From: Candidatus Woesearchaeota archaeon
Lineage (GTDB): Archaea > Nanobdellota > Nanobdellia > Woesearchaeales > WJIZ01
Length of the DNA stretch: 64,000 nt
Direction: 5' to 3'
Assembly (NCBI GenBank): GCA_018303125.1
Contig: JAGVYS010000003.1
Coordinates: 637-64,636 of the forward strand
Both the position numbers and the translations under genes were made by a program. Below the pieces are notes generated by a model. The model made no database searches, was not told where the DNA came from, and saw only the letters and a list, made by a program, of their open reading frames with translations. Shown piece by piece: positions 8,455-54,669 of this stretch (the first letter of the stretch is position 1; the number at the start of each line of letters is the position of its first letter).

Positions 8455-9392
8455 TTCTGGACAATAAGATAAGAGACCAAATGGAGTATACACTGAAGGA
8501 AACACGTTTCAATCTTGGCAAGAAATACCAGGGCAAGGTAAGGGATACTTACATGACCGATGATAAGATCTACATAATAACAACTGACAGGATCAGCGCA
8601 TTTGACCGTGTCCTCACAACAGTCCCTTTCAAGGGCCAGGTTTTGAATCAGATATCTGATTTCTGGTTCAGCATGACAAAGGACATAGTGAAGAACCACG
8701 TCATTTCTGTGCCTGACCCGAATGTAATGGTCACCAGGAAGCTGAATATACTCCCTATAGAGGTTGTAATAAGAGGATACTTGACAGGCTCTGCATGGCG
8801 AGATTACCAGAAAGGGAATGCTGTTTCAGGAATAAAGCTGCCTCCGGGCATGAGGAAGGACCAGAAGTTCGATAAGCCGTTATTCACTCCATCAACCAAG
8901 GCTAAGGAAGGGCATGACATGCCTCTCTCAGTGCATGATATTGTTGCGCAGGGAATGTTATCTAAAGAGCTTATCCAGAAGGTTGAGGAAATGGCACTAA
9001 AGGTTTTCAAGAGGGGCCAGGAAGTTGCGCTTAGCAATGGAATGATATTGGTTGATACAAAATACGAATTTGGCCTTGATGAAAACAATGAGATTTACCT
9101 TGCCGATGAACTGCATACTCCAGATTCCTCAAGATACTGGTATGCTGATACTTATGAGGAAAGGTTCAGGAATGGGCAGGAGCAAAGGATGCTTGACAAG
9201 GAATATCTTAGGCAGTGGCTGATAAAAGAGAGGAGCTTCATGGGCGACGGCCATATACCTGAGATACCAGCAGAAGTAATAATAGAAGTGGCAAAGAAAT
9301 ACATAAAGGCCTATGAGGAGATTACAGGCAAGAAGTTTGATGCTAAAGTCGGGGATGTCCTTGAAAGGGTTAAAAAGTGCCTCGGTGCATAG
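8451..9392 (+). CDS. purC: SAICAR synthetase (phosphoribosylaminoimidazole-succinocarboxamide synthase), long form
   Basis: TDRISAFD motif; 313 aa; overlaps the purE stop by 4 nt. Confidence 0.9.
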
Positions 9393-9437
9393 TTTAGTTG
9401 CAAAATATTTATAAATTTCTTTAATGACGGGTTAGCC

Positions 9438-9914
9438 ATGGGTTATGCGGCTCAGTTGATGTGTTCTTATCGTCACCTTACAGCTTCTGGAATGCATTTT
9501 GTTGTTATGAGGAACGGAGATTATGTTTTAACAGCAGAGGGAGCACCTGCAGTTGTGGATGATTTAGAATCTGCAATAAAACTACGGGAAGAACAGGATA
9601 TTCCTGCTAATATTTTTTCAGTCACTGCATCCCCAATAGGCAATACAGGAAAAATCATAAATAATGGAGAGGACATAACACGATTCCTAATCTCTTCTGG
9701 AGGTGCGGAGCCTTTTTGTAATTTGCCCGGCATTATACCAATATCGAAAGACGAGCCTGTTTATGTTGGCCGTAATGGGACAGGCTATTCAGGATTCTAT
9801 GCCGTGGATAGTGTAAAAATAGATAACGGCGCCCGTGATGTGAAAATACAGGAAGTCAGGCTAAAAAAATTGGATGAAAATCCGCCAGCAGGGAAATACC
9901 TTTTTCTTGCCTGA
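9438..9914 (+). CDS. hypothetical protein
   Basis: 158-aa ORF with a TATA-like atatttataaatt ~25-30 bp upstream; no recognisable family. Confidence 0.45.
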   Translation: MGYAAQLMCSYRHLTASGMHFVVMRNGDYVLTAEGAPAVVDDLESAIKLREEQDIPANIFSVTASPIGNTGKIINNGEDITRFLISSGGAEPFCNLPGIIPISKDEPVYVGRNGTGYSGFYAVDSVKIDNGARDVKIQEVRLKKLDENPPAGKYLFLA

Positions 9915-9923
9915 GCACATCTT

Positions 9924-10343
9924 TCATCCTTCGCAGGCATATTTTTGGTATTTTGCTATCATATTTTCTGCAGCGAAAATCAGCTGCTGCATTGCATAAG
10001 ATTCAAGCGCCTTTACCATATATTCCGCTTTGCCTGTTATAAGCGCAGTCCTGCTGTCCCGCTTAGCGTTAAGCGCATCTGCCCATACCTTGATTCCCTC
10101 CTCTAGGGAAAAGTTTCCTTTAAGAAATTTTGACATGTGGCATTGTGTTCTTTCTGCAGAAACTACAGCACCTGTGTTGTCATGGCAAATAACAGTTGGC
10201 CCATAGACGCTTATGTCCCCTGCCATTACACGATGGCTGCTGCCATGTTCAAAAAGGAAAATGTAATCCAGGGAAAAATCGCGGAATGGAAAAAATGGTT
10301 TCGAATTTGCCCTTATTACCCTCCAGTCTCTATTTTCACGCAT
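9924..10343 (-). CDS. hypothetical protein
   Basis: 139-aa ORF that does not overlap its neighbours; its AT-rich upstream region is shared with the suhB-like gene; no recognisable family. Confidence 0.35.
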   Translation of the reverse strand: MRENRDWRVIRANSKPFFPFRDFSLDYIFLFEHGSSHRVMAGDISVYGPTVICHDNTGAVVSAERTQCHMSKFLKGNFSLEEGIKVWADALNAKRDSRTALITGKAEYMVKALESYAMQQLIFAAENMIAKYQKYACEG

Positions 10344-45942: not shown

Positions 45943-45956
45943 TCTTATTCCTTTAC

Positions 45957-46041
45957 GGGCCGTACGAGATTCGAACTCGCGACCCCCTGATTGCTTCTGC
46001 CTTAAAAGTCAGGTGCTCTAGCCAGGCTGAGCTAACGGCCC
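45957..46041 (-). tRNA. tRNA-Lys(UUU) with an ~11-nt intron in the anticodon loop
   Basis: Reverse complement: GGGCCGT TA GCTC AGCCTGGCTA GAGC A CCTGA CTTTTA[AGGCAGAAGCA]A TCAGG GGGTC GCGAG TTCGAAT CTCGT ACGGCCC. Confidence 0.75.
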
Positions 46042-46044
46042 AAA

Positions 46045-46967: not shown

Positions 46968-47009
46968 GAAATTGATTTATGGCATTGGTTTATAAATCCT
47001 GCGAGAATG

Positions 47010-47324
47010 TTAATCCTTCCCTGTGCTGTATACTCCCTCTTTTTCGTCCACATCCACTATCTTACCCTTAATTATTTTCTTTTTGCTCGGCTTCTCCTTT
47101 TTCCTGAAGCTATTTCCTATGCCATGGAACAATCCAGACAGGAGCATTCTCAAGAAGGCAAAAATCCCGGTAAGAAGCATGAGCAGCCCTATTATAATCA
47201 ATGGCAGGCCTATGAAAATCAATATTATGCTTATGCTCAGTATAATGCCGAGCATTATGATTATTATGGATACTACAATAAGAATGAGAGGCAGAATTAT
47301 CGGCCTTATGACAATCGCTTTCAT
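47010..47324 (-). CDS. small membrane protein
   Basis: 104 aa with two long Ile/Leu-rich helices and a charged C-terminus. The overlapping plus-strand Q/Y/N-rich ORFs are antisense artefacts. Confidence 0.4.
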   Translation of the reverse strand: MKAIVIRPIILPLILIVVSIIIIMLGIILSISIILIFIGLPLIIIGLLMLLTGIFAFLRMLLSGLFHGIGNSFRKKEKPSKKKIIKGKIVDVDEKEGVYSTGKD

Positions 47325-47374
47325 TTATGCATCTAAAAAATAGAAGTTTAAAATATTTTTCAAATATGGAAGGC

Positions 47375-48094
47375 TTAATCTATGGAAGTTGGTTCCCCAA
47401 TAAAAGAATAAAAGTCTTCCTTCTCAAATTTCCATGAGCAGATTATATTGAACTCATCGTCAAAATAAACAATCGCTTCTTGCTTATAATCGCCTGAGGT
47501 TATGTCTGGGGCATATATGGTATAGAAGCTAATTGCATATGATTCTTCCTGTTTTGATTGAATTTTCTGGATACTGTCTTTAACTCTATCTGGGCAGCTT
47601 TTAATTTCTTCAGTTGCGCAATAATCACCCTTCATATCCTCTATTGCTTGCATATCTTCTTCAGATATGGCTCCTGCCAAATAAAACTCTTTAGGGCAGT
47701 TATTTCTTATTACATCCATGACTTCTTCACTCGTGTTACTGTATAGCTTATCTAGTGATGGCAGTTGCGGGCCTCCTTTAAATGCAGAATCTCCTTTCCT
47801 TCCCAACCCTTTTGATTTTAAATAATTAAGTGCTAAACGTTCTCTTACTAGGCTTGCAAATTCTTTTCCCTTTGAAAACTCCTTAAATATGCCAATCTCT
47901 TCAGCCAATTTTGATTTTTCCTCTGTTAAAGAAGCTACCTTAGTTGATAATTTAAAATTCTCTTCTGAGAAAGAGTTTAAATCATATTTTAATTCCTTAA
48001 TATCATTATTCCTCTGGATTATCAGAAAAGTTGCTATCCCTAACAAGGTAAGGACCAAAACAGCAAAGCCAATTATTACATACTTATTATCCAT
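47375..48094 (-). CDS. membrane-anchored hypothetical protein with a coiled-coil region
   Basis: N-terminal TM helix (YVIIGFAVLVLTLLGIATFLII) followed by coiled coil; 239 aa. Confidence 0.5.
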   Translation of the reverse strand: MDNKYVIIGFAVLVLTLLGIATFLIIQRNNDIKELKYDLNSFSEENFKLSTKVASLTEEKSKLAEEIGIFKEFSKGKEFASLVRERLALNYLKSKGLGRKGDSAFKGGPQLPSLDKLYSNTSEEVMDVIRNNCPKEFYLAGAISEEDMQAIEDMKGDYCATEEIKSCPDRVKDSIQKIQSKQEESYAISFYTIYAPDITSGDYKQEAIVYFDDEFNIICSWKFEKEDFYSFIGEPTSID

Positions 48095-48248
48095 TAACAG
48101 TACCTCCCTTTATTTGTATAAATAACTTTCTTTGTTTTTCCAAAACAATAATCACTAGTAGCCAGCATGTGTTATGACATCTCAATAATCATAGTTTGCC
48201 AATATATCGATTATATGCAAAGTCTATTTTGTTGCTGAGAATAAAAGA

Positions 48249-48320
48249 GCCCCTGGAGGAACTTGAATCCTCGACCTTTACCTTACCAAGGTAACGCTCT
48301 ACCAGCTGAGCTACAGGGGC
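48249..48320 (-). tRNA. tRNA-Thr(GGU)
   Basis: Reverse complement: GCCCCTG TA GCTC AGCTGGTA GAGC G TTACC TTGGTAA GGTAA AGGTC GAGGA TTCAAGT TCCTC CAGGGGC. Confidence 0.8.
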
Positions 48321-48479
48321 GATACGCATGGGAAACTCCAAGAGTTCTTTAAATAGATTATCATGATACATTTTTTTGCCTGGTAATCATTTTAAGTTCT
48401 TAAAAAATTCATTTAGTCCTATTAGTTACCAGACGGTTACCAAAAAATTTATATAGTTCTATTTGTTACCACGTCTCAT

Positions 48480-49076
48480 ATGATCAAAGAGAATAAAATA
48501 CCCTTAAAAGTGTGTCTAATTGACTTGAATGAAGCATATCAAAAGGTATTGTATTGGTTCTTTTCATTTCCTGGCAGGAATATAGGCCTCAATGAATTGT
48601 CATCAGCTTTGCGGATTTCTAAAACAACTGCAAAAAAGGTTGTTGTAGATCTTGAAAAGGAAGGTTTTCTGAAAAGGAAGGTTTATGGAAAAACCTGGGT
48701 AATCTCGTGCGATGTCAGCCATAATTTCAATTTCACAAAAAAAGTGGCTTTCAATTTAGCCATGGTTTTTGGGGCCTACCGGTCGGGCTTGAAAGGCCGC
48801 ATCAATGACTTTGTCGGCAATGCCCAAGCAGTAATCCTTTTTGGCTCCTACAGGAAAGGAGATGACACCGAGAAGAGCGACATTGACATTGCAGTTGAGG
48901 TAGTTGGCAACGCAGATTTGAAAATAATCCAGCTCGGAATAATGCAGCAATTCGGCTACAGGAAAGATGTGCCAATCAACCTACACGTCTTTTCCAGGAA
49001 TAAGGTTGACATAAACATGTTTTCGAATATTGCCAATGGGATTGTATTGGAAGGTTTTCTGGAGGTAAAAGCATGA
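48480..49076 (+). CDS. winged-HTH plus minimal nucleotidyltransferase (MNT) protein, second copy
   Basis: ILFGSYRKGDDTEKSDIDIAV nucleotidyltransferase motif; paralog of 11846..12364. Confidence 0.8.
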   Translation: MIKENKIPLKVCLIDLNEAYQKVLYWFFSFPGRNIGLNELSSALRISKTTAKKVVVDLEKEGFLKRKVYGKTWVISCDVSHNFNFTKKVAFNLAMVFGAYRSGLKGRINDFVGNAQAVILFGSYRKGDDTEKSDIDIAVEVVGNADLKIIQLGIMQQFGYRKDVPINLHVFSRNKVDINMFSNIANGIVLEGFLEVKA

Positions 49077-49468
49077 GATACAAGTGCCCTGATAAGAAAA
49101 GCGCCATAAGCATTCTTGAGGCATCGCAGAGGGAGATGAAGTATACTGAGTCACTTGAGGTATCTGAAGACTCTGGTTCCACAATTGTTAGGAATACATA
49201 TGAATGTTTCAGGATGCTGGGCGATTCCTTGCTGGTTTCTGAAGGGATAGAGTCTGAAGACCACATAGCGCCGATTAAAGAGCTGATGAAATTGAAGATA
49301 GCCACAGATAGGCCTATCAATCTCGTTGATAATCTGCGCAGGTTAAGGCATAATATCAACTATTATGGTTACAAGCCTTCTCTTGAGGAAGTAAAGGAAG
49401 TAAAGGCCATAGCCAAAAGTCTTTTTGAAAAGATTAAAAATGAGGTTCTGAGAAAGATTAAACAATAG
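49073..49468 (+). CDS. HEPN/KNTase-C-like partner of the MNT, intact copy
   Basis: 131 aa; 4-nt overlap with the MNT gene; C-terminal RRLRHNINYYGYKPSLEEVKEVKAIAKSLFEKIK matches the read-through sequence of 12358..12789. Confidence 0.7.
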   Translation: MRYKCPDKKSAISILEASQREMKYTESLEVSEDSGSTIVRNTYECFRMLGDSLLVSEGIESEDHIAPIKELMKLKIATDRPINLVDNLRRLRHNINYYGYKPSLEEVKEVKAIAKSLFEKIKNEVLRKIKQ

Positions 49469-49574
49469 CTATTTGTGTTCTCTGTACAGCTGAAACATCG
49501 CTCGAAAGTCTGGGTTTTTCGGCATTCTGTTTTTCAGGCGCCATTCCTTGTTAATCATCTTGCTTGAAAATAAT

Positions 49575-49657
49575 GCAGGGTAGCGGATTCGAACCGCTGA
49601 ACGCACTAAGCGACAAGGCCCTGAACCTTGCAGGTTTGACCGCTTCCTTAACCCTGC
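49575..49657 (-). tRNA. tRNA-Leu(CAG), class II
   Basis: Reverse complement: GCAGGGT TA AGG AAGCGGTCAAA CCT G CAAGG TTCAGGG CCTTG, long variable arm, then AGCGG TTCGAAT CCGCT ACCCTGC. Confidence 0.75.
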
Positions 49658-49698
49658 GTTGCGCTTTTTTCATTTCCACATTAAACTATGAAGGGAAT

Positions 49699-49794
49699 GC
49701 GAGGGGAGGGATTTGAACCCACGGACCCACTAAGGGACAGGATTTCCTGATTTACTTAAGTCCTGCGCGTTTGGCCAGGCTTCGCTACCCTCGC
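49699..49794 (-). tRNA. tRNA-Leu(UAA)-like, class II, with a ~11-12 nt anticodon-loop intron
   Basis: Reverse complement: GCGAGGG TA GCG AAGCCTGGCCAAA CGC G CAGGA CTTAAG[TAAATCAGGAA]A TCCTG, long variable arm, then GTGGG TTCAAAT CCCTC CCCTCGC. There is one U-U mismatch in the T-stem. Confidence 0.6.
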
Positions 49795-49960
49795 GCAAAG
49801 GCAAAAAAGCCATAGGCAGTTTATATATTTTCTTAGGCAGGTTTTGCGTGAATATGCAAAATATGCAATGGAGGTTGTGCTCATAATACCAGATTTAGAC
49901 AAAAAAACTTTATAAAATAGAGGGCATTTCATTCGGATAAACCAATACGGGGCAAGAAAG

Positions 49961-50452
49961 ATGGATTACGCAAGAATAGTTGTTGCTCAGATGAACATAG
50001 CAGATATTAACCCAATCGTGCAGGCGGCAACAAACCCAAATGTTTTTTATACTCGCAGCCCGCTAGCGGCTTTAGGCTATGTTAGGGATAGGGAAGTAGA
50101 TGTTGCTGTTGTCGGGCAGGTTTTTTCACGCTTAAACCATGATGATCCTTATTGGGTAAGTGATGGGACAAAGCTGGCCAAAAATATGGAAGAGGTTAGC
50201 CCAAACCTTGTTGTGGCAAGATATAGCTTTGTGCCAGATGAAGGTGACTCATGTGTTTTTCACGCAGATATTCCAAAAAGAAACGCAGATATTGATAAGG
50301 TAGTGGAATTTATAGATTTTGATGGACTTGCCAGTCTATTGAAGGGTAGAGATACTGAAGAAATAATGAGAAGATTCCCGGCATTTACATGGCATAAAAT
50401 GAATTTTAACAGAAATGCTCTTCATTATCAACGAGAATTTTCACTGAGCTGA
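49961..50452 (+). CDS. hypothetical protein (possible degenerate receiver-like fold, related to 62128 and 62672)
   Basis: 163-aa ORF; VAVVGQVFSRLNHDD and NLVVARYSFVPDEGD echo the VYVIDANLGRPGEVD and VVVIPISGNPDL blocks of the proteins at 62128..62577 and 62672..63127. Confidence 0.4.
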   Translation: MDYARIVVAQMNIADINPIVQAATNPNVFYTRSPLAALGYVRDREVDVAVVGQVFSRLNHDDPYWVSDGTKLAKNMEEVSPNLVVARYSFVPDEGDSCVFHADIPKRNADIDKVVEFIDFDGLASLLKGRDTEEIMRRFPAFTWHKMNFNRNALHYQREFSLS

Positions 50453-50511
50453 AATCCTTTTAATTTTGTTGCCCACACCGATAATGATACACTCGGCAGA
50501 ATGAAATAAAA

Positions 50512-51012
50512 TCATACCTTGTATCTTTTGCAATAGCTGTAGAGCTTGTTATACAATTTGTAAGATGCCGCAGAAACTATGCCATCGTATCTGCTCATCC
50601 AGTATCTCCAGACGAGCTTGTCCCACAATGTCCTGACAAATATGTACCATGCCTTCTGCTCCCACCTGTGCTCAAGGTCGGTTTCAAGGAAGCCATCAAT
50701 TATGACGAGGATGTGTCCCTTCTGCATGTTTCTTCTTGAATCGCCCCTCTCAAGCGTGAAATCGATCACGTCCTTCATCAGCGCCCTTATCCTGATGACT
50801 GACCTGGAGTCTTCTGTTATGTCCTTCCATAGCTCGAATATGTAGTCAATCTTCTTTCCATCCTGCTCTACATGCTGGAGCTTTTTTTTCGTATCCCTTT
50901 CATAGCCGTTTTCTTTTGTCCAGTCTGCAATCTCCTTGAAGAACTCTTCAATGTCAAACATGCCAGTGTAATTGAATCTAAGGGCATCGATGACTAATTT
51001 TTTCTCTACCAT
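50512..51012 (-). CDS. tandem paralog 4 of an uncharacterised aromatic/basic-rich small-protein family
   Basis: 166 aa; shares ...ILVIIDGFLETDLEHRW... with the paralog at 51014. Confidence 0.55.
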   Translation of the reverse strand: MVEKKLVIDALRFNYTGMFDIEEFFKEIADWTKENGYERDTKKKLQHVEQDGKKIDYIFELWKDITEDSRSVIRIRALMKDVIDFTLERGDSRRNMQKGHILVIIDGFLETDLEHRWEQKAWYIFVRTLWDKLVWRYWMSRYDGIVSAASYKLYNKLYSYCKRYKV

Positions 51013-51013
51013 C

Positions 51014-51544
51014 TTAGAAGTAAGGCGCCTCCTTTACAGGCACATAGCTCTTGTACATGTTGAAAAATGTCTCGAAGTGGGTATACAGCCCATTGCAATC
51101 ATCCACTATGACTTTCTCGAAGAATTTTGTGTACCTTTTGTATATGAACTTCGCATACAGCGTCCTTATGAATATAAGCATGGGAGCATTGCCCCACCTA
51201 TGCTCATAGTCAGTTTCCATGAATCCGTCGATGTATATTATTATCTTTGCATGGTCCATTGTTTTCTTCCTGCCATCGACAACAATATCGACCTTCTTCA
51301 GGTCATAAATGAGTATCCTTATCTTCATGTATTTCCTCATGAAGTCAGATAGCTTGTACCATGGCCAATATACATACTCTATGCATTTGCCGTGGCTTGT
51401 GTGCTGCTCGGATATGTAATCCGCACCTTTTTCGAAAGGGTTCTCCTTGAACCACCTGGTGAACATCCTGAACATCTCCCTTGTGCTGAATATTCCCTTG
51501 TACTCAAGCTTCATGTGGTCCACAACAAGCCTTACCTCTCCCAT
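51014..51544 (-). CDS. tandem paralog 3 of the same family
   Basis: 176 aa; ...IIIYIDGFMETDYEHRW..., N-terminal LEYKGIFSTREMFRMFTRWFKENPF; 1-nt spacing to its neighbours. Confidence 0.55.
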   Translation of the reverse strand: MGEVRLVVDHMKLEYKGIFSTREMFRMFTRWFKENPFEKGADYISEQHTSHGKCIEYVYWPWYKLSDFMRKYMKIRILIYDLKKVDIVVDGRKKTMDHAKIIIYIDGFMETDYEHRWGNAPMLIFIRTLYAKFIYKRYTKFFEKVIVDDCNGLYTHFETFFNMYKSYVPVKEAPYF

Positions 51545-52140
51545 TAGTTGTGGACCCCCATCCAGTTCTTCATTTCGTATTCGTCATACTCCATCTTGAG
51601 CCTTCTTCTTGTCAGCCATACTGCTTTCTGCACTTCCCTATACATCATAACATCCCATGTGTGCCATCCATGTTTTTTCCTCACGACGAAATTGTTCAGG
51701 AACATCCTCATGCTTGCAAGTGTCCTGTTTGAGGACCATCTCCTGCTGCTGCCTTCATGGCTGTGTTCGTCATCAAAGTACATGTCAATGTAGCTCCCGA
51801 ACTCTATCCATATCCTCCCTTTGGTGTAAATTTTCATGTTTCCGTTCGGCAGCCTCACTTCAATGTCATGCGCGTCATATGTGTGTATGTATATATCTAT
51901 ATGGAAATGGTGCATCTCGTCTATCATTCTTTCAGCATGCCATATGTATTGCCTCTCAACGCCGAATGGCGATGGTGCCTTGTGCTTGTATATCTTCTCA
52001 TGGAATTTGTACTTTCTGTCCCTGAAATAGCTTATGAGGAACTCATACAGGTCCTGCATGTCCCACACACCCTTAAACCTTATATGAGGCTTAGGGTGAG
52101 CCATATTTTGTGTAGATTCCCAGTATTCAAGCTTTCTCAT
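51544..52140 (-). CDS. tandem paralog 2 of the same family
   Basis: 198 aa; IRFKGVWDMQDLYEF...KYKFHEKIYKHKAPSPFGVERQYIW...YIHTYDAHDIEV; long stretches of near-identical DNA shared with paralog 1. Confidence 0.6.
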   Translation of the reverse strand: MRKLEYWESTQNMAHPKPHIRFKGVWDMQDLYEFLISYFRDRKYKFHEKIYKHKAPSPFGVERQYIWHAERMIDEMHHFHIDIYIHTYDAHDIEVRLPNGNMKIYTKGRIWIEFGSYIDMYFDDEHSHEGSSRRWSSNRTLASMRMFLNNFVVRKKHGWHTWDVMMYREVQKAVWLTRRRLKMEYDEYEMKNWMGVHN

Positions 52141-52712
52141 GCTCTAATATGCACTCCCTGCTGGTATGCATCCTCGAAATCCCTTCTCTCGGATTTTAGC
52201 GTTCTAAGCATAACCTGGTAAAGCCCTGACTGCTCTGTCCTGAATCTCCTGTGAAATCCCCCCTCTAGAAGTCTCCTCCTGTAAATGTAGTTCATGTAAA
52301 ATGCCTTCAGCTGCCCGAAGAAAGAGTTCCTGTCAAAATCCTTCTTTGGGTCCCAGGAGCTCGTGAGCCTTATGACAACCCAGATCTTTCCCTTGGTAAG
52401 GGTCTTTTTCTCTCCATTATTGTCATGCACATCTATGTCATGCGCGTCATATGTGTGTATGTATATGTTGAATGTTACCTCCATCCAATCATCAATCAGT
52501 TGCTCGGCCTCCCATATGTACTGCCTCTCAACGCCGAATGGCGATGGTGCCTTGTGCTTGTATATCTTTTCATGGAATTTGTACTTTCTGTCCCTTAGGT
52601 AGTTTATTGCTGCATCATACAACTCCTGCATATCCCACACGCCCTTGAACCTTATGTGCAAGTCTCCTGGCAGAGGCATTCCTTTCTGGGGTATATCCTT
52701 GTATCTAGCCAT
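52137..52712 (-). CDS. tandem paralog 1 of the same family
   Basis: 191 aa; IRFKGVWDMQELYDAAINYLRDRKYKFHEKIYKHKAPSPFGVERQYIW...YIHTYDAHDIDV; 4-nt overlap with paralog 2. Confidence 0.6.
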   Translation of the reverse strand: MARYKDIPQKGMPLPGDLHIRFKGVWDMQELYDAAINYLRDRKYKFHEKIYKHKAPSPFGVERQYIWEAEQLIDDWMEVTFNIYIHTYDAHDIDVHDNNGEKKTLTKGKIWVVIRLTSSWDPKKDFDRNSFFGQLKAFYMNYIYRRRLLEGGFHRRFRTEQSGLYQVMLRTLKSERRDFEDAYQQGVHIRA

Positions 52713-52787
52713 GGCTTCAAATGCGTTATCTTTCTATATAAAACTTTCTTTTTTATATATTAGTATACAAAAAAGGGAATTAGCAAA

Positions 52788-54626
52788 TCAGTATCTAAGA
52801 AGTATCTCCACGTTCTTCCCGAACAATTCCCTTAAATTCTCGAATATGGCTTCCTTTATAAGGACGTTTTCAGGTATGCTTACCTTGGAAAGCGCCTTCT
52901 CATATTCCTCAAGCGAGCTCTTCTCTATGCTCTCCAGGCCTCCATTATCATTGAGCCTTCCCTTTGAGATGTCCTTCTCTTGGCCATCTATGTCATGGAT
53001 TATGAATGCGTTCTTGCCTGCAAGGAGCACCTCTCCATACTTGTTCCCGTATTTGAACCTTATCTTAGCCTTCTCTATCTCCCTTCCCCTTTTCCTCTGT
53101 ATATATTCGACAAGGAATTTCACGAGGTTATGCGAGTCCTTCTTGGCATTCTCAACTTCCTGCTTTGTCAGCTTGTTAGCCTCATAATCCTTTCTTGCTT
53201 TTATTATGCAGTTGAGAATCCTTAGGTATTTGGCAGGCACAAGTCCCTTGGATATAAGCTCGTCTTCGAAAACAGTAACTATTTCTGAGTCAGCAGCTTT
53301 TGATATGCCTTCTATCCTTAGCACATCCCTTATGGCAGTTATGGAATTTTCATATACCTGCACAACATCTTCCTTCTCCTTAATCTTCTCGATTTCCGAG
53401 AATAATCTCTTAATCCTCTTGAGGTACTTGTCAGCATCCTCAAGCAGCTGGTCGACTTCCTTGCCAGATAACTCCTTCTTAGTGCCATGCTCTATGTCTT
53501 TTCTTACATTTATGTTCCTATCAAGTATCTCTACATATTTGCTTTCAAGGAGCTTCTCCTTCTTTACGAATATATCCCTCATAAGCTCCGCTGTTTCACG
53601 CGGCGCAGGAGGTGGCACACCATACATCATAAGGGCAGCCTGCGATGGCGTCAGGATGGCATAATATATGTCCTCCATCCCTATGTTCTTGAGTGAATAC
53701 CTTACGCGCTGGAGCATCTGCTCTCCGGAGTTCATGAACATGTCTATTGCCTCTGTGCTTGGCTTTATCTTGCCCATCCTTAGCAGCTGCTTCCAGGGCA
53801 TGAACATTCCCCTGTCATAGAACGGTACTCCGTCTCTTAGCAGGGTGAATATTATCGGGTTTGCCTCTTTCAGGCTGTCCCAGAAATCAGTCAGTATGTA
53901 GACTTGGATGTTGAGCTTGTTTTTTATTCCTGTGGCCTCTCCTGCCTCTATGCCCATTCCTATTATGATTGCCCTTAGCTTGTCCTTCAGCTCTGCTCGG
54001 GACATTTTCTTTACGTCAGTATCATCTATTACAATCCATACATCTATGTCAGATGACTTTGTTGCCCTTCCCTGGACAAGGGAGCCGGCAAGGACATAGC
54101 TCACTATATACTTCTCGAACTTCTTGAGCACCATTGTTTTGTGCACTTCAGCTATCTTTATGGCCTGCAGCATTCCGTTGTCATGGACAGGCGCGCTTAC
54201 AGAAATAAGCTGGAGCAGGTCATACTTTGCGTCATAGCAGTTCTGCCACAACTCAGACAGGATTATAGTATCCGCTACCAGGTTTTTGTCTATCTCCTTG
54301 GCTATGCTGCCCATTATTGTATGCAGCTTTGTTCCGAGCTCATACTTGGTCATCTTCTTTGAGTCAGAATCATCAACAAGCACGAGGATAGATATGGCAT
54401 CCTTGTTCTGCTCCTCGCCCTCCTTTGGCTTTGGGGGAGGTAGAAGCGTTATTCCCATTACATACTTGTCAAATTTCTCAAGAACTTTTTCCTTGAACTT
54501 CTCAAGCTTCGACTTTATCTCCTTGAGCTTTTCCTCAGCCTCTTTAGGCAGGTTTGCAGGAAAGCTGGGCATCTGTACGTCTTTCAGCTCGCTCTCGAAA
54601 TCCTTGCCGCTTTTCTTCTTTGACAT
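52788..54626 (-). CDS. large nucleotidyltransferase-domain protein (Pol-beta/minimal nucleotidyltransferase superfamily), coiled-coil N-terminus
   Basis: 612 aa. A clean nucleotidyltransferase motif VLAGSLVQGRATKSSDIDVWIVIDDTD, plus an upstream degenerate nucleotidyltransferase-like segment (ISILVLVDDSD). First gene upstream of the four-paralog array on the same strand. Confidence 0.6.
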   Translation of the reverse strand: MSKKKSGKDFESELKDVQMPSFPANLPKEAEEKLKEIKSKLEKFKEKVLEKFDKYVMGITLLPPPKPKEGEEQNKDAISILVLVDDSDSKKMTKYELGTKLHTIMGSIAKEIDKNLVADTIILSELWQNCYDAKYDLLQLISVSAPVHDNGMLQAIKIAEVHKTMVLKKFEKYIVSYVLAGSLVQGRATKSSDIDVWIVIDDTDVKKMSRAELKDKLRAIIIGMGIEAGEATGIKNKLNIQVYILTDFWDSLKEANPIIFTLLRDGVPFYDRGMFMPWKQLLRMGKIKPSTEAIDMFMNSGEQMLQRVRYSLKNIGMEDIYYAILTPSQAALMMYGVPPPAPRETAELMRDIFVKKEKLLESKYVEILDRNINVRKDIEHGTKKELSGKEVDQLLEDADKYLKRIKRLFSEIEKIKEKEDVVQVYENSITAIRDVLRIEGISKAADSEIVTVFEDELISKGLVPAKYLRILNCIIKARKDYEANKLTKQEVENAKKDSHNLVKFLVEYIQRKRGREIEKAKIRFKYGNKYGEVLLAGKNAFIIHDIDGQEKDISKGRLNDNGGLESIEKSSLEEYEKALSKVSIPENVLIKEAIFENLRELFGKNVEILLRY

Positions 54627-54669
54627 TCAACCACAAATTCACAGGCATATTTAAAAATATTGCGCCATG

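Follow-up and report, generated by a model that had tools for sequence, protein, structure and literature searches.

Closest described systems

The family cls.004259 (representative NEQ050) was described as a DPANN-specific 'MNT fused to HEPN', found typically in a housekeeping context, and was put on a list of priority unknowns, with remarks on its unusual conservation, by Makarova, Wolf and Koonin in 2019 (PMC6393860). The locus considered here occupies 50.5-54.6 kb of the window, i.e. the whole 64,000-nt stretch analysed, which comes from a Woesearchaeota MAG, and encodes a 612-aa enzyme, NT, followed by four small proteins, A1, A2, B and C. As far as a comparison by description allows, NT resembles cls.004259 in being a single-polypeptide MNT+HEPN protein, restricted to DPANN and widespread there, unusually conserved and surrounded by housekeeping neighbours. 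The searched portions of the text and supplement make no mention of an internal duplication, an invariant Rx4H motif, a C-terminal domain, an A-B-C triad or a CBS-ZnR partner.

FhepTA likewise joins a Pol-β-type minimal nucleotidyltransferase carrying GS…DxD to an R-x4-H HEPN domain, with the MNT N-terminal to the HEPN in both proteins. Unlike FhepTA (~276 aa), NT has both domains duplicated and possesses an extra C-terminal domain, lacks the tyrosine after the histidine, lies off mobile elements and prophages, and is found throughout its lineage at high conservation, with no patchy distribution. Kanamycin/aminoglycoside nucleotidyltransferases, GlnE/GlnD and DrrA also combine a nucleotidyltransferase with a helical HEPN-derived domain and, like NT, have a chromosomal, non-selfish role, GlnE even containing two nucleotidyltransferase modules, as NT does. 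In such domesticated enzymes the RNase residues have been lost from the HEPN domain (PMC3710099), whereas R375 and H380 are invariant in NT.

Domain architecture of NT

All five open reading frames proposed in an earlier sequence-only reading of the window were confirmed in their predicted positions. The NT gene (52788-54626, minus strand, as are all module features below) codes for an inactive MNT, an active MNT, a HEPN domain with Rx4H, a degenerate HEPN domain and a C-terminal domain, in that order. One intact and one degenerate nucleotidyltransferase motif had been recognised before, and both were found; instead of the coiled coil that had also been suggested, there are two HEPN-type helical bundles and the β-rich C-terminal domain.

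The inactive MNT copy, delimited by alignments and the structure model (residues ~55-150, 54177-54464), is devoid of GS and DxD and retains a duplicated VDDSDxKKM block. In the alignment of 86 orthologs its D85, D86 and D88 are conserved and G-S…DxD is absent, and in the model its secondary structure repeats the pattern of residues 165-270. The active-looking MNT (residues ~165-275, 53802-54134) contains G181 S182…D193-x-D195 and D247, the first four being invariant in 86/86 orthologs and D247 being present in 84/86. Across residues 161-300 of these orthologs the columns are conserved at 0.85-0.98 per 20-residue block, and residues 169-220 are matched by Pfam PF01909/PF18765.

The HEPN domain (residues ~288-415, 53382-53765) possesses an intact Rx4H motif, R375-K-D-I-E-H380, of which R375, K376, E379 and H380 are invariant in all 86 orthologs. 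It is followed by the second, degenerate HEPN-like helical bundle assigned from model and alignment (residues ~420-519, 53070-53369; modelled helices 388-438, 446-458, 466-482 and 488-519), which has a lysine at position 478 in 83 of the 86 orthologs, no R/H pair and no histidine among its tabulated conserved positions. In HEPN RNases the dimer interface usually has to bring two Rx4-6H motifs together; each NT chain supplies only one intact motif. The C-terminal domain (residues 520-612, 52791-53069), modelled with five strands and two helices, gave no profile match in PDB or Pfam. NT derives from an MNT/HEPN pair of the type VII toxin-antitoxin-like kind, joined into one chain and duplicated internally.

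In type VII systems a tyrosine two residues past the HEPN histidine is the AMP acceptor. This tyrosine is absent from NT, where the histidine is followed by G381 in 85/86 orthologs, so any self-regulation of NT would not be canonical. The observation weighs against regarding NT as a domesticated toxin-antitoxin-like growth switch, in which the MNT would silence the HEPN RNase in cis by nucleotidylation while ATP is plentiful, a CBS protein would report the energy charge, starvation would free the RNase and halt translation, and A, B and C would be accessory or unrelated. Such a switch is suggested by the invariance of both NT motifs, by the self-oligoAMPylation of fused MNT-HEPN proteins, which blocks HEPN toxicity (PMC13000451), by a CBS-ZnR protein encoded directly downstream in 46% of loci, and by the phrase 'most probably a toxin-antitoxin module' applied to the unusually conserved family in the 2019 survey (PMC6393860). 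In addition to the missing acceptor, it has to contend with a duplicated architecture of 612 aa, double the 276 aa of FhepTA, and with the extreme conservation of the whole MNT and the C-terminal domain, which suggests contact with a conserved macromolecule, beyond self-modification alone. We regard it as rather unlikely.

The small proteins A1, A2, B and C

Downstream of NT, after a 75-nt gap, there are the A-type gene A1 (52137-52712, 191 aa), a second A-type copy, A2 (51544-52140, 198 aa), sharing a 4-nt ATGA overlap with A1, the B-type gene B (51014-51544, 176 aa), overlapping A2 by 1 nt, and the C-type gene C (50512-51012, 166 aa), separated from B by 1 nt. A TATA-like box TTTTTAAATA (54647-54656), located in the 43-nt gap between proB and NT, ~25 nt before the NT start codon, fits the archaeal promoter consensus and may be the NT promoter element. 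Reading of the intergenic sequence also revealed a T6 run (52769-52774), 14 nt past the NT stop codon, which is a possible archaeal terminator, and a second TATA-like box, TTTATATA (52735-52742), ~26 nt before the A1 start codon, which may be a separate promoter for an A1-A2-B-C operon, consistent with the array being found without NT in other genomes.

A1 and A2 are 46% identical (E 3e-49), B and C 29% (E 6e-30), and A1 and B 19% (E 5e-5), and a profile built exclusively from A-type sequences matches both B (2e-15) and C (1e-12). By these comparisons the four proteins belong to one superfamily, their paralogy being far beyond chance, as had been noticed earlier. The earlier reading could not place them in a known family, and indeed no family match was obtained for them in Pfam, NCBIfam, PADLOC, PHROG or PDB, nor any PADLOC match for 98 members of the superfamily. 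There are 61 distinct orthologs of B, with the signature Y15-x-G17, E46, G52-K53, D106, D112, W117, R127, and 44 of C. All four proteins are basic (pI 8.8-9.3), contain 15-20% W/Y/F and are strongly hydrophilic (GRAVY -0.4 to -0.9); the conserved residues on their strands include charged or polar ones.

The superfamily is predicted to adopt a KA1/TBP-like α+β fold, with five strands in the model. RnlA and LsoA are HEPN RNases with TBP-like N-terminal domains; RnlA carries its domains in one chain and belongs to an anti-phage TA system, whereas A, B and C are encoded as three or four individual paralogs, and no sequence similarity to RnlA was found. KA1 domains, found for example in METTL16 and TUT1, have acidic lipids or U6 snRNA as ligands. 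A/B/C share their basic surface but differ in the extra strand, the long C-terminal helical hairpin and their existence as stand-alone proteins in a paralog triad, and no sequence-level relationship to KA1 domains was detected.

The basic character of A/B/C, together with the roughly one third of A-centred loci in which the array occurs without NT, could be taken to indicate lipid or membrane binders (KA1/START/PRELI-like) of a lipid-auxotrophic symbiont, adjacent to NT through inherited synteny with no functional link. This seems very improbable given the hydrophilicity and polar strand residues of these proteins, their mere five strands, too small for a START cavity, and an adjacency to NT that outlasts complete turnover of the flanks.

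A-type proteins contain a loop K-x-P-(S)-P-(F/Y)-G-x-E (residues 54-62), which is exposed and strongly conserved though modelled at pLDDT ~65. The loop in particular, and the many tyrosines of A, might make A/B/C the substrates of NT acting as a GlnE/GlnD/KNTase-like protein nucleotidyltransferase, with the HEPN domain binding the substrate; the NT-triad gene linkage is in agreement with this, and the typical fate of MNT-HEPN fusions is domestication into enzymes that modify proteins or small molecules (PMC3710099). However, the HEPN domains of such enzymes normally lack Rx4-6H (PMC3710099), which is invariant in NT, S57 of the loop is kept in no more than 60-90% of the A sequences, the loop is missing from B and C, and the proposed substrates are far less conserved than NT, all of which makes this assignment unlikely.

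Gene conversion between A1 and A2

The near-identical DNA previously reported in A1 and A2 is real, but the coordinate pairs quoted for it were misaligned by 2 and 8 nt; in register, with 572-nt spacing, it comprises one stretch of 39 nt (95% identity) and another of 119 nt (87%). The conversion tract in A2 (51856-52035) matches 52428-52607 in A1. In the cores of the two genes the same codon is used at 42/54 identical residues, compared to 23/45 and 30/53 for orthologs, and the C-terminal halves follow orthology, which supports gene conversion. Of the recent duplication or conversion proposed earlier, the codon test favours conversion, whereas the duplication itself is older than the point at which the L001, L004 and L088 lineages branched off, A2 being orthologous to the second A copy of these genomes (65, 56 and 61%, respectively).

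Genomic context and distribution

The sequence-only reading described the region as a tRNA-flanked accessory island housing a hitherto undescribed defence system of the nucleotide-signalling or NTase-effector type, with NT as sensor or synthase and the four paralogs as effectors. Variability is confined to 48.2-50.5 kb, a flank (48247-50452) which lies outside the module. It includes tRNA-Thr(GGU) (48247-48320, minus strand), the MNT/HEPN pair reported before at 48480-49468, consisting of a wHTH-MNT gene (48480-49076, plus strand) whose MNT passes Pfam thresholds and a HEPN-like gene (49073-49468, plus strand) with a sub-threshold Pfam match only, tRNA-Leu(CAG) (49574-49657, minus strand), tRNA-Ser(UGA) with an 11-nt intron (49698-49794, minus strand), mistaken for a second tRNA-Leu, and orf163 (49961-50452, plus strand), in which neither the receiver domain once suspected nor any other family was matched. 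No homolog of wHTH-MNT, HEPN-like or orf163 occurs in any related locus, and BLASTP detected no similarity between the small MNT/HEPN pair and NT.

NT has 3,785 homologs, the best 120 of which show 68-78% identity, and is present in at least 577 GTDB species genomes of Woesearchaeota/Nanoarchaeota, a lower bound; its identity range across these lineages is 61-78%, and the 86 orthologs share 61-76% with the window copy. The identity of proC, proA and proB at the window locus was confirmed, and the module is also adjacent to proCAB in L001 and L004. Identity to the L001 genome is 55% for ProC, 58% for ProA, 59% for ProB, 77% for NT, 65% for A2, 65% for B and 60% for C, and to L004 44% for ProA, 77% for NT and 64% for B. 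In the same genome pairs NT is therefore more conserved than ProA/B/C, and the module genes evolve more slowly than, or at the same pace as, these. The G+C content of 50.5-54.6 kb (0.42-0.46) equals that of neighbouring core genes, and no relatives of the module proteins were found in phage, plasmid, IMG/VR and BFVD collections.

The gene order A (1-2 copies)-B-C is fixed across loci, with the genes overlapping or abutting. Of the 56 NT-centred loci that extend at least 3 kb downstream, 19 (34%) have A-B-C downstream of NT on the same strand and in the same order; of the 20 A-centred loci that extend at least 4.5 kb upstream, 13 (65%) have NT upstream of the triad. In about two thirds of NT loci there is no triad within 6 kb, so NT may function without it. 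The second recurrent partner, a CBS-pair/zinc-ribbon (CBS-ZnR) protein, is encoded between or after NT in 26/56 loci (46%). The upstream flanks vary (proCAB, PolB, eRF1/histone/eIF5A or a giant surface protein), and NT-array adjacency persists despite complete turnover of flanking genes; as the loci are phylogenetically related, part of the NT-triad linkage could be inherited synteny.

A defence role is hinted at by the adjoining tRNA genes and small MNT/HEPN pair, by weak NT matches (E 3.5e-5 to 2.8e-4) to two candidate models of PADLOC, PDC-S09 and PDC-M05A, and by the fact that MNT/HEPN modules are mostly toxin-antitoxin or defence elements (PMC3710099). It is hardly credible for a set of genes which is this widespread and conserved, keeps housekeeping neighbours and proCAB synteny in relatives, has normal G+C, and has neither relatives in the phage, plasmid, IMG/VR and BFVD collections nor PADLOC matches among its small proteins. 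Conservation across relatives at the same locus is also what the sequence-only reading had itself named as speaking against it.

Proposed function

The earlier expectation that the locus holds an undescribed functional module is supported. We suggest, with a probability of roughly 0.6, that 50.5-54.6 kb holds a module which Woesearchaeota/Nanoarchaeota (DPANN) carry lineage-wide and inherit vertically, and whose mechanism is inferred. Its being a conserved core module and not a defence system is very probable; that it acts on RNA and that A/B/C physically partner the enzyme is a tentative proposal, less likely than not.

Characterised HepT toxins act on tRNA 3' ends. NT would be a domesticated HEPN-MNT module acting on a conserved cellular RNA, its HEPN domain being responsible for RNA cleavage and its MNT domain for nucleotide transfer, and A, B and C would form a hetero-oligomer of fixed stoichiometry binding either NT or its RNA substrate. 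Where present, the CBS protein may tie activity to adenine-nucleotide levels.

Gene layout of the locus

[quoted passage not shown] From NT to C, the genes are first 75 nt apart, then overlap at ATGA and at TAATG, and B and C are separated by 1 nt. The window belongs to a genome of Candidatus Woesearchaeota (DPANN), and A1 is 100% identical to a protein deposited as [quoted passage not shown]. One TATA-like box lies about 25 nt upstream of the NT start codon and another one at the same distance from the ATG of the triad, and a T6 run is present downstream of the NT stop codon, features of the window sequence which suggest two separate transcripts, predicted to be leaderless, in agreement with the separability of NT and the triad in other genomes. 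The rpoB and rpoA genes are located a few kb from the module, and the G+C content of the gene set (0.42–0.46) is that of the adjoining core genes.

ORF calling recovered the ORFs listed by the sequence-only reading of this region, the observations of which are largely correct, while its interpretation, a tRNA-flanked defence island, is not.

Variable flank at the tRNA genes

A small wHTH-MNT (198 aa) and HEPN-like (131 aa) pair (48480–49468, plus strand, 4-nt overlap), orf163 (a 163-aa ORF) and orf239 (47375–48094, minus strand) are specific to the window genome and have no homologs in any related locus, so the variable material is confined to about 47.4–50.5 kb around the tRNA genes. The pair matches two PADLOC candidate models that are themselves paired, PDC-M05A (6e-10) and PDC-M05B (1e-4), its HEPN-like protein has R91-x4-Y96 as in UPF0332 proteins, and it is plausibly a mobile toxin-antitoxin (TA) or defence pair adjoining tRNA genes. 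It shows no significant BLASTP similarity to NT and was rejected as a source or near relative of it. The receiver domain proposed for orf163 found no support in any family library searched, and the only family matches of orf239 are weak and sub-threshold, to an N-terminal FtsL/DivIC-like segment.

Between 46500 and 48500 the G+C content falls to 0.34–0.38 against 0.42–0.46 elsewhere, ORFs on both strands overlap each other at 47007–47343, and no ORF has a homolog in the related loci; this stretch is more likely to be the accessory one. The tRNA located at 49698–49794 (minus strand), previously read as a second tRNA-Leu, is a tRNA-Ser(UGA) with an 11-nt intron, and an intron of the same length is found in tRNA-Lys(UUU) (45955–46042, minus strand). 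With default settings ARAGORN missed the former and called the latter "tRNA-???", and both were recovered with Rfam and the ARAGORN intron option.

Distribution and domain architecture of NT

Sequence searches revealed 3,785 NT homologs, labelled by JGI as "UPF0332 family/predicted nucleotidyltransferase", and the best 120 of the homolog clusters all belong to Woesearchaeota/Nanoarchaeota, with 68–78% identity over the full length. When one genome of each GTDB species was scanned, at least 577 genomes were found to encode an NT relative. Many TPA metagenome-assembled genomes (MAGs) titled "uncultured Methanosarcinales archaeon" (L008–L012, L020, L021 and others) carry a Woesearchaeota-type MNT-HEPN with 65–73% identity and are probably taxonomically mislabelled.

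NT is a duplicated single chain, and its helical half, described earlier as a coiled coil, consists of two HEPN bundles. A degenerate MNT copy (residues ~55–150), devoid of GS and DxD, keeps the duplicated VDD(S/T)DxKKM block and is followed by an intact MNT (residues ~165–275) with G181-S182…D193-I-D195 and a PF01909 match above threshold, a HEPN domain (residues ~288–415) with R375-K-D-I-E-H380 in register with the AF0298 motif, a degenerate HEPN (residues ~420–519) and a β-rich domain (residues 520–612) with no relatives detectable in profile searches. Comparison of NT gave values of 11.7 for the HEPN of AF0298/UPF0332, 9.8 for the minimal nucleotidyltransferase 2rff, about 8 for HepT toxins and about 7–8 for MntA antitoxins, ANT/KNT, GlnE and DrrA. 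G181, S182, D193, D195, R375, K376, E379 and H380 are invariant in 86/86 orthologs, and conservation reaches 85–98% in columns 161–300. The residue following H380 is G381 in 85 of the 86, then x-K-K, and the Tyr which adjoins the HEPN histidine and accepts AMP in type VII systems is absent from NT.

The small-protein superfamily

The four small proteins are indeed paralogs: A1 and A2 are 46% identical (E 3e-49), B and C 29% (E 6e-30) and A1 and B 19% (E 5e-5), and an HMM built from A-type sequences alone finds B (2e-15) and C (1e-12). None of the four matches Pfam, NCBIfam, PADLOC or PHROGs, and they belong to no annotated family; 98 superfamily representatives gave no consistent match in Pfam or NCBIfam and nothing in PADLOC, and the superfamily profiles found no relative in the PDB (E ≥0.38). 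An exhaustive profile search yielded 1,117 cluster representatives, all of them single-domain proteins of about 160–220 aa.

A1, A2, B and C have pI values of 8.8–9.3, are hydrophilic and contain 15–20% W/Y/F. A-type proteins share G24, D27, Y32, E48, K54-x-P-x-P-x-G-x-E62, W67, H86, D89, T106 and G108, and B- and C-type proteins share Y-x-G, E46, D106…D/E…W117 and R127. Throughout the superfamily alignment, only G24, D27 and E48 show at least 90% conservation or full invariance, which makes a shared catalytic site unlikely. The fixed gene order, tight coupling and differentiation of the paralogs suggest a putative hetero-oligomer of A, B and C.

The predicted structure of A1, a confident model (pLDDT 86.9, pTM 0.81), has a β-α-β-β-β-β arrangement followed by two long helices. 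KA1, TBP-like and SRPBCC folds were considered for the α+β core of the small proteins, and the folds listed for this model are SRPBCC/Bet v 1, Ups1/SLMO, RnlA TBP-like domains and AdoMetDC. A role of A/B/C as lipid or membrane binders tied to NT by synteny alone is highly improbable given their hydrophilic character and a linkage which survives changing flanks, described below.

A1 and A2 each have a separate ortholog in three homologous loci from other genomes (L001, L004 and L088), so the duplication is old, and the recent duplication offered as one explanation of the A1/A2 DNA repeats is ruled out. The repeats themselves are real, with their register corrected to a 572-nt spacing, and gene conversion, offered as the other explanation, agrees with the codon pattern of the conserved core (N-terminal residues 20–93). 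In the window, A1 and A2 have 57/74 identical core residues, with identical codons at 42/54 of the identical positions scored, and only 22/96 identical residues in the C-terminal half; the corresponding values are 48/74, 23/45 and 38/97 for A1 and its L001 ortholog, and 56/74, 30/53 and 60/96 for A2 and its L001 ortholog. Judged from these sequences, this indicates gene conversion of the core. In L004 the A1 ortholog (9429–10004) has lost the conserved K-H-K-x-P-S-P-F-G loop (EIEQEPPTPYG) and the second copy retains it, suggesting relaxed constraint or subfunctionalisation after duplication.

Genomic partners of NT

When all ORFs of 87 NT-centred loci were clustered, two recurrent partners emerged downstream of NT, the small-protein superfamily and CBS-ZnR, a protein of ~183 aa with a CBS pair and a C-terminal CxxC…CxxC zinc ribbon. 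The partners are always on the same strand as NT, in the order NT-(CBS)-A-B-C. In 56 loci the sequence downstream of NT spans 3 kb or more; of these, the triad alone was found in 10, CBS-ZnR with the triad in nine, CBS-ZnR alone in 17 and neither in 20, and the superfamily HMM detected no further small-protein members in the NT-centred loci. On the closed chromosome OY970338.1 (L059), for example, NT and the triad do not adjoin each other. CBS-ZnR lies directly downstream of NT in 34/86 NT loci (L006, L011, L013, L017, L018, L023, L031 and others); in Woesearchaeota it is often located between NT and the A-B-C array, a position at which it is missing in the clade of the window.

In an independent A-centred sample (47 metagenome loci and three A-centred contigs, L088–L090), the order A (one or two copies)-B-C is kept wherever the genes were detected, with no C-type gene found after B in a few loci, e.g. 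L090, L121 and L125. Of the 20 A-centred loci with at least 4.5 kb upstream, 13 have NT there, on the same strand. The flanks on both sides of NT and the triad turn over completely between genomes, so that their adjacency is more than inherited synteny, although the loci lack phylogenetic independence. Arrays not preceded by NT show no recurrent alternative partner: a Sua5/YciO/YrdC-domain gene lies upstream in L090 (3709–4065), and divergent D-Ala-D-Ala-ligase/ATP-grasp genes in L002 (~8800–9836) and L003.

Some lineages carry additional genes in the neighbourhood, including a 320-aa ORF with no Pfam match between NT and A1 in L001 (8977–9939) and a LAGLIDADG homing-endonuclease-like gene right after C in L005 (12759–13616). 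In one clade (L005, L007, L032, L067, L080, L082) a giant Cys-rich predicted surface protein of more than 1,500 aa recurs upstream of NT, as do a membrane protein of ~270 aa and a divergent protein of ~400 aa with an acidic tail.

Conservation of the locus and the defence-island interpretation

The pairing of NT with the array, which the sequence-only reading had proposed to look for in other archaea, is found in relatives: L001 has the same arrangement as the window, proC-proA-proB-NT-A-A-B-C, and L004 has proA-NT-A-A-B-C. Identity between the window genome and L001 is 55% for ProC, 58% for ProA and 59% for ProB, compared to 77% for NT, 50% for A1, 65% for A2, 65% for B and 60% for C; with L004 it is 44% for ProA (no value for ProC and ProB), 77% for NT, 48% for A1, 56% for A2, 64% for B and 56% for C. 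Thus, NT evolves more slowly than the enzymes of amino-acid biosynthesis, whose rate the small proteins roughly share. In other genomes NT neighbours PolB, eRF1/histone/eIF5A or pyrB/pyrI/pyrD, PGI and thioredoxin reductase genes.

Searches of 50,697 phage records (BLASTN/TBLASTN) and of 2.9 million IMG/VR viral contigs gave no relative of either NT or A, and BLASTN/TBLASTN against 72,556 plasmids gave none for A. The A1 model had no match among the BFVD viral structures at E ≤0.001. On these searches, together with the PADLOC and PHROGs results, a defence or mobile origin of the module was rejected. A CD-NTase/CBASS-like system, with a known-class effector in a variable defence island, is not what was found either, as NT falls outside the CD-NTase family and the small proteins, which PADLOC does not match, sit in a conserved housekeeping locus. 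The island proposed from the combination of an NTase, paralogs and tRNA genes is therefore refuted by conservation, kept position, housekeeping context and absence from mobile elements, and is extremely improbable.

Comparison with known systems

Conserved, lineage-specific genes are very scarce in DPANN archaea. Makarova, Wolf & Koonin 2019 (PMC6393860) name four uncharacterised DPANN-specific families as top-priority targets, including an MNT-HEPN fusion, and note the unusual conservation of this fusion. In every feature compared, NT matches the description of that cluster, cls.004259 (representative NEQ050), as a DPANN-specific, broadly conserved fusion of MNT and HEPN in housekeeping context. 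The literature search found nothing on the NT family beyond this 2019 listing and no description of the triad, its linkage with NT or the CBS-ZnR partner. NT is a duplicated MNT-HEPN enzyme, domesticated and probably the one previously marked out as a DPANN "known unknown", and what is new is its partner genes from an unannotated family.

Among characterised systems, type VII HepT/MntA and the fused FhepTA (PMC13000451) come closest; in these, oligoAMPylation catalysed by MNT neutralises HEPN toxicity. NT shares with them the hG[GS]…Dx[DE] motif of MNT and the Rx4-6H RNase motif of HEPN. Unlike type VII proteins, in which the Tyr of RφxxxHxY is the AMPylation acceptor (PMC13000451), NT has Gly in place of the adjacent Tyr, and a self-AMPylating growth switch is distinctly unlikely with this residue missing. 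Furthermore, type VII systems are patchy and occur in prophages, islands and plasmids, whereas NT is present in the genomes of hundreds of species, among housekeeping neighbours, and was not found in phages or IMG/VR.

Like domesticated NTases of the KNTase/GlnE type, NT joins an NTase to a HEPN-like helical domain. However, HEPN domains fused to MNT usually lose the RNase residues on domestication, e.g. in GlnE and KNTase (Anantharaman et al., PMC3710099), whereas R375 and H380 are invariant in NT, which sets the family apart from such fusions. The intact MNT might also modify proteins, with A/B/C as the substrates of a protein nucleotidyltransferase; since Rx4H is retained and Ser is weakly conserved, this is improbable.

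Proposed role of the module

NT is lineage-wide, slow-evolving and embedded among housekeeping genes, has intact NTase and HEPN signatures and is genomically linked to the triad and CBS-ZnR. We propose, with a probability of roughly one in three for the whole, that the domesticated HEPN-MNT enzyme acts on conserved cellular RNA, that A/B/C would form its basic, aromatic-rich, hetero-oligomeric partner and that the CBS protein would sense adenine nucleotides. Characterised HepT toxins target tRNA 3′ ends. The more specific suggestion that the NT sites, the triad and CBS-ZnR may constitute a DPANN-specific, essential RNA-surveillance or maturation machine, for instance trimming and re-extending tRNA 3′ ends, is speculative and on balance unlikely; if true, core housekeeping machinery would have arisen from a TA module, and a protein family not seen before would serve as its RNA-binding platform.

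The proximity of tRNA genes, an NTase and unknown paralogs is not enough to call a defence island, and the module is no new defence system. With a duplicated single chain, invariant signatures, slow evolution and two recurrent partners defined, one of the DPANN unknowns becomes testable and a long-standing question of DPANN dark matter is now open to experiment. Should cellular RNA prove to be what NT acts on, the enzyme would clearly exemplify the recruitment of a TA module for a core function by symbionts with reduced genomes.
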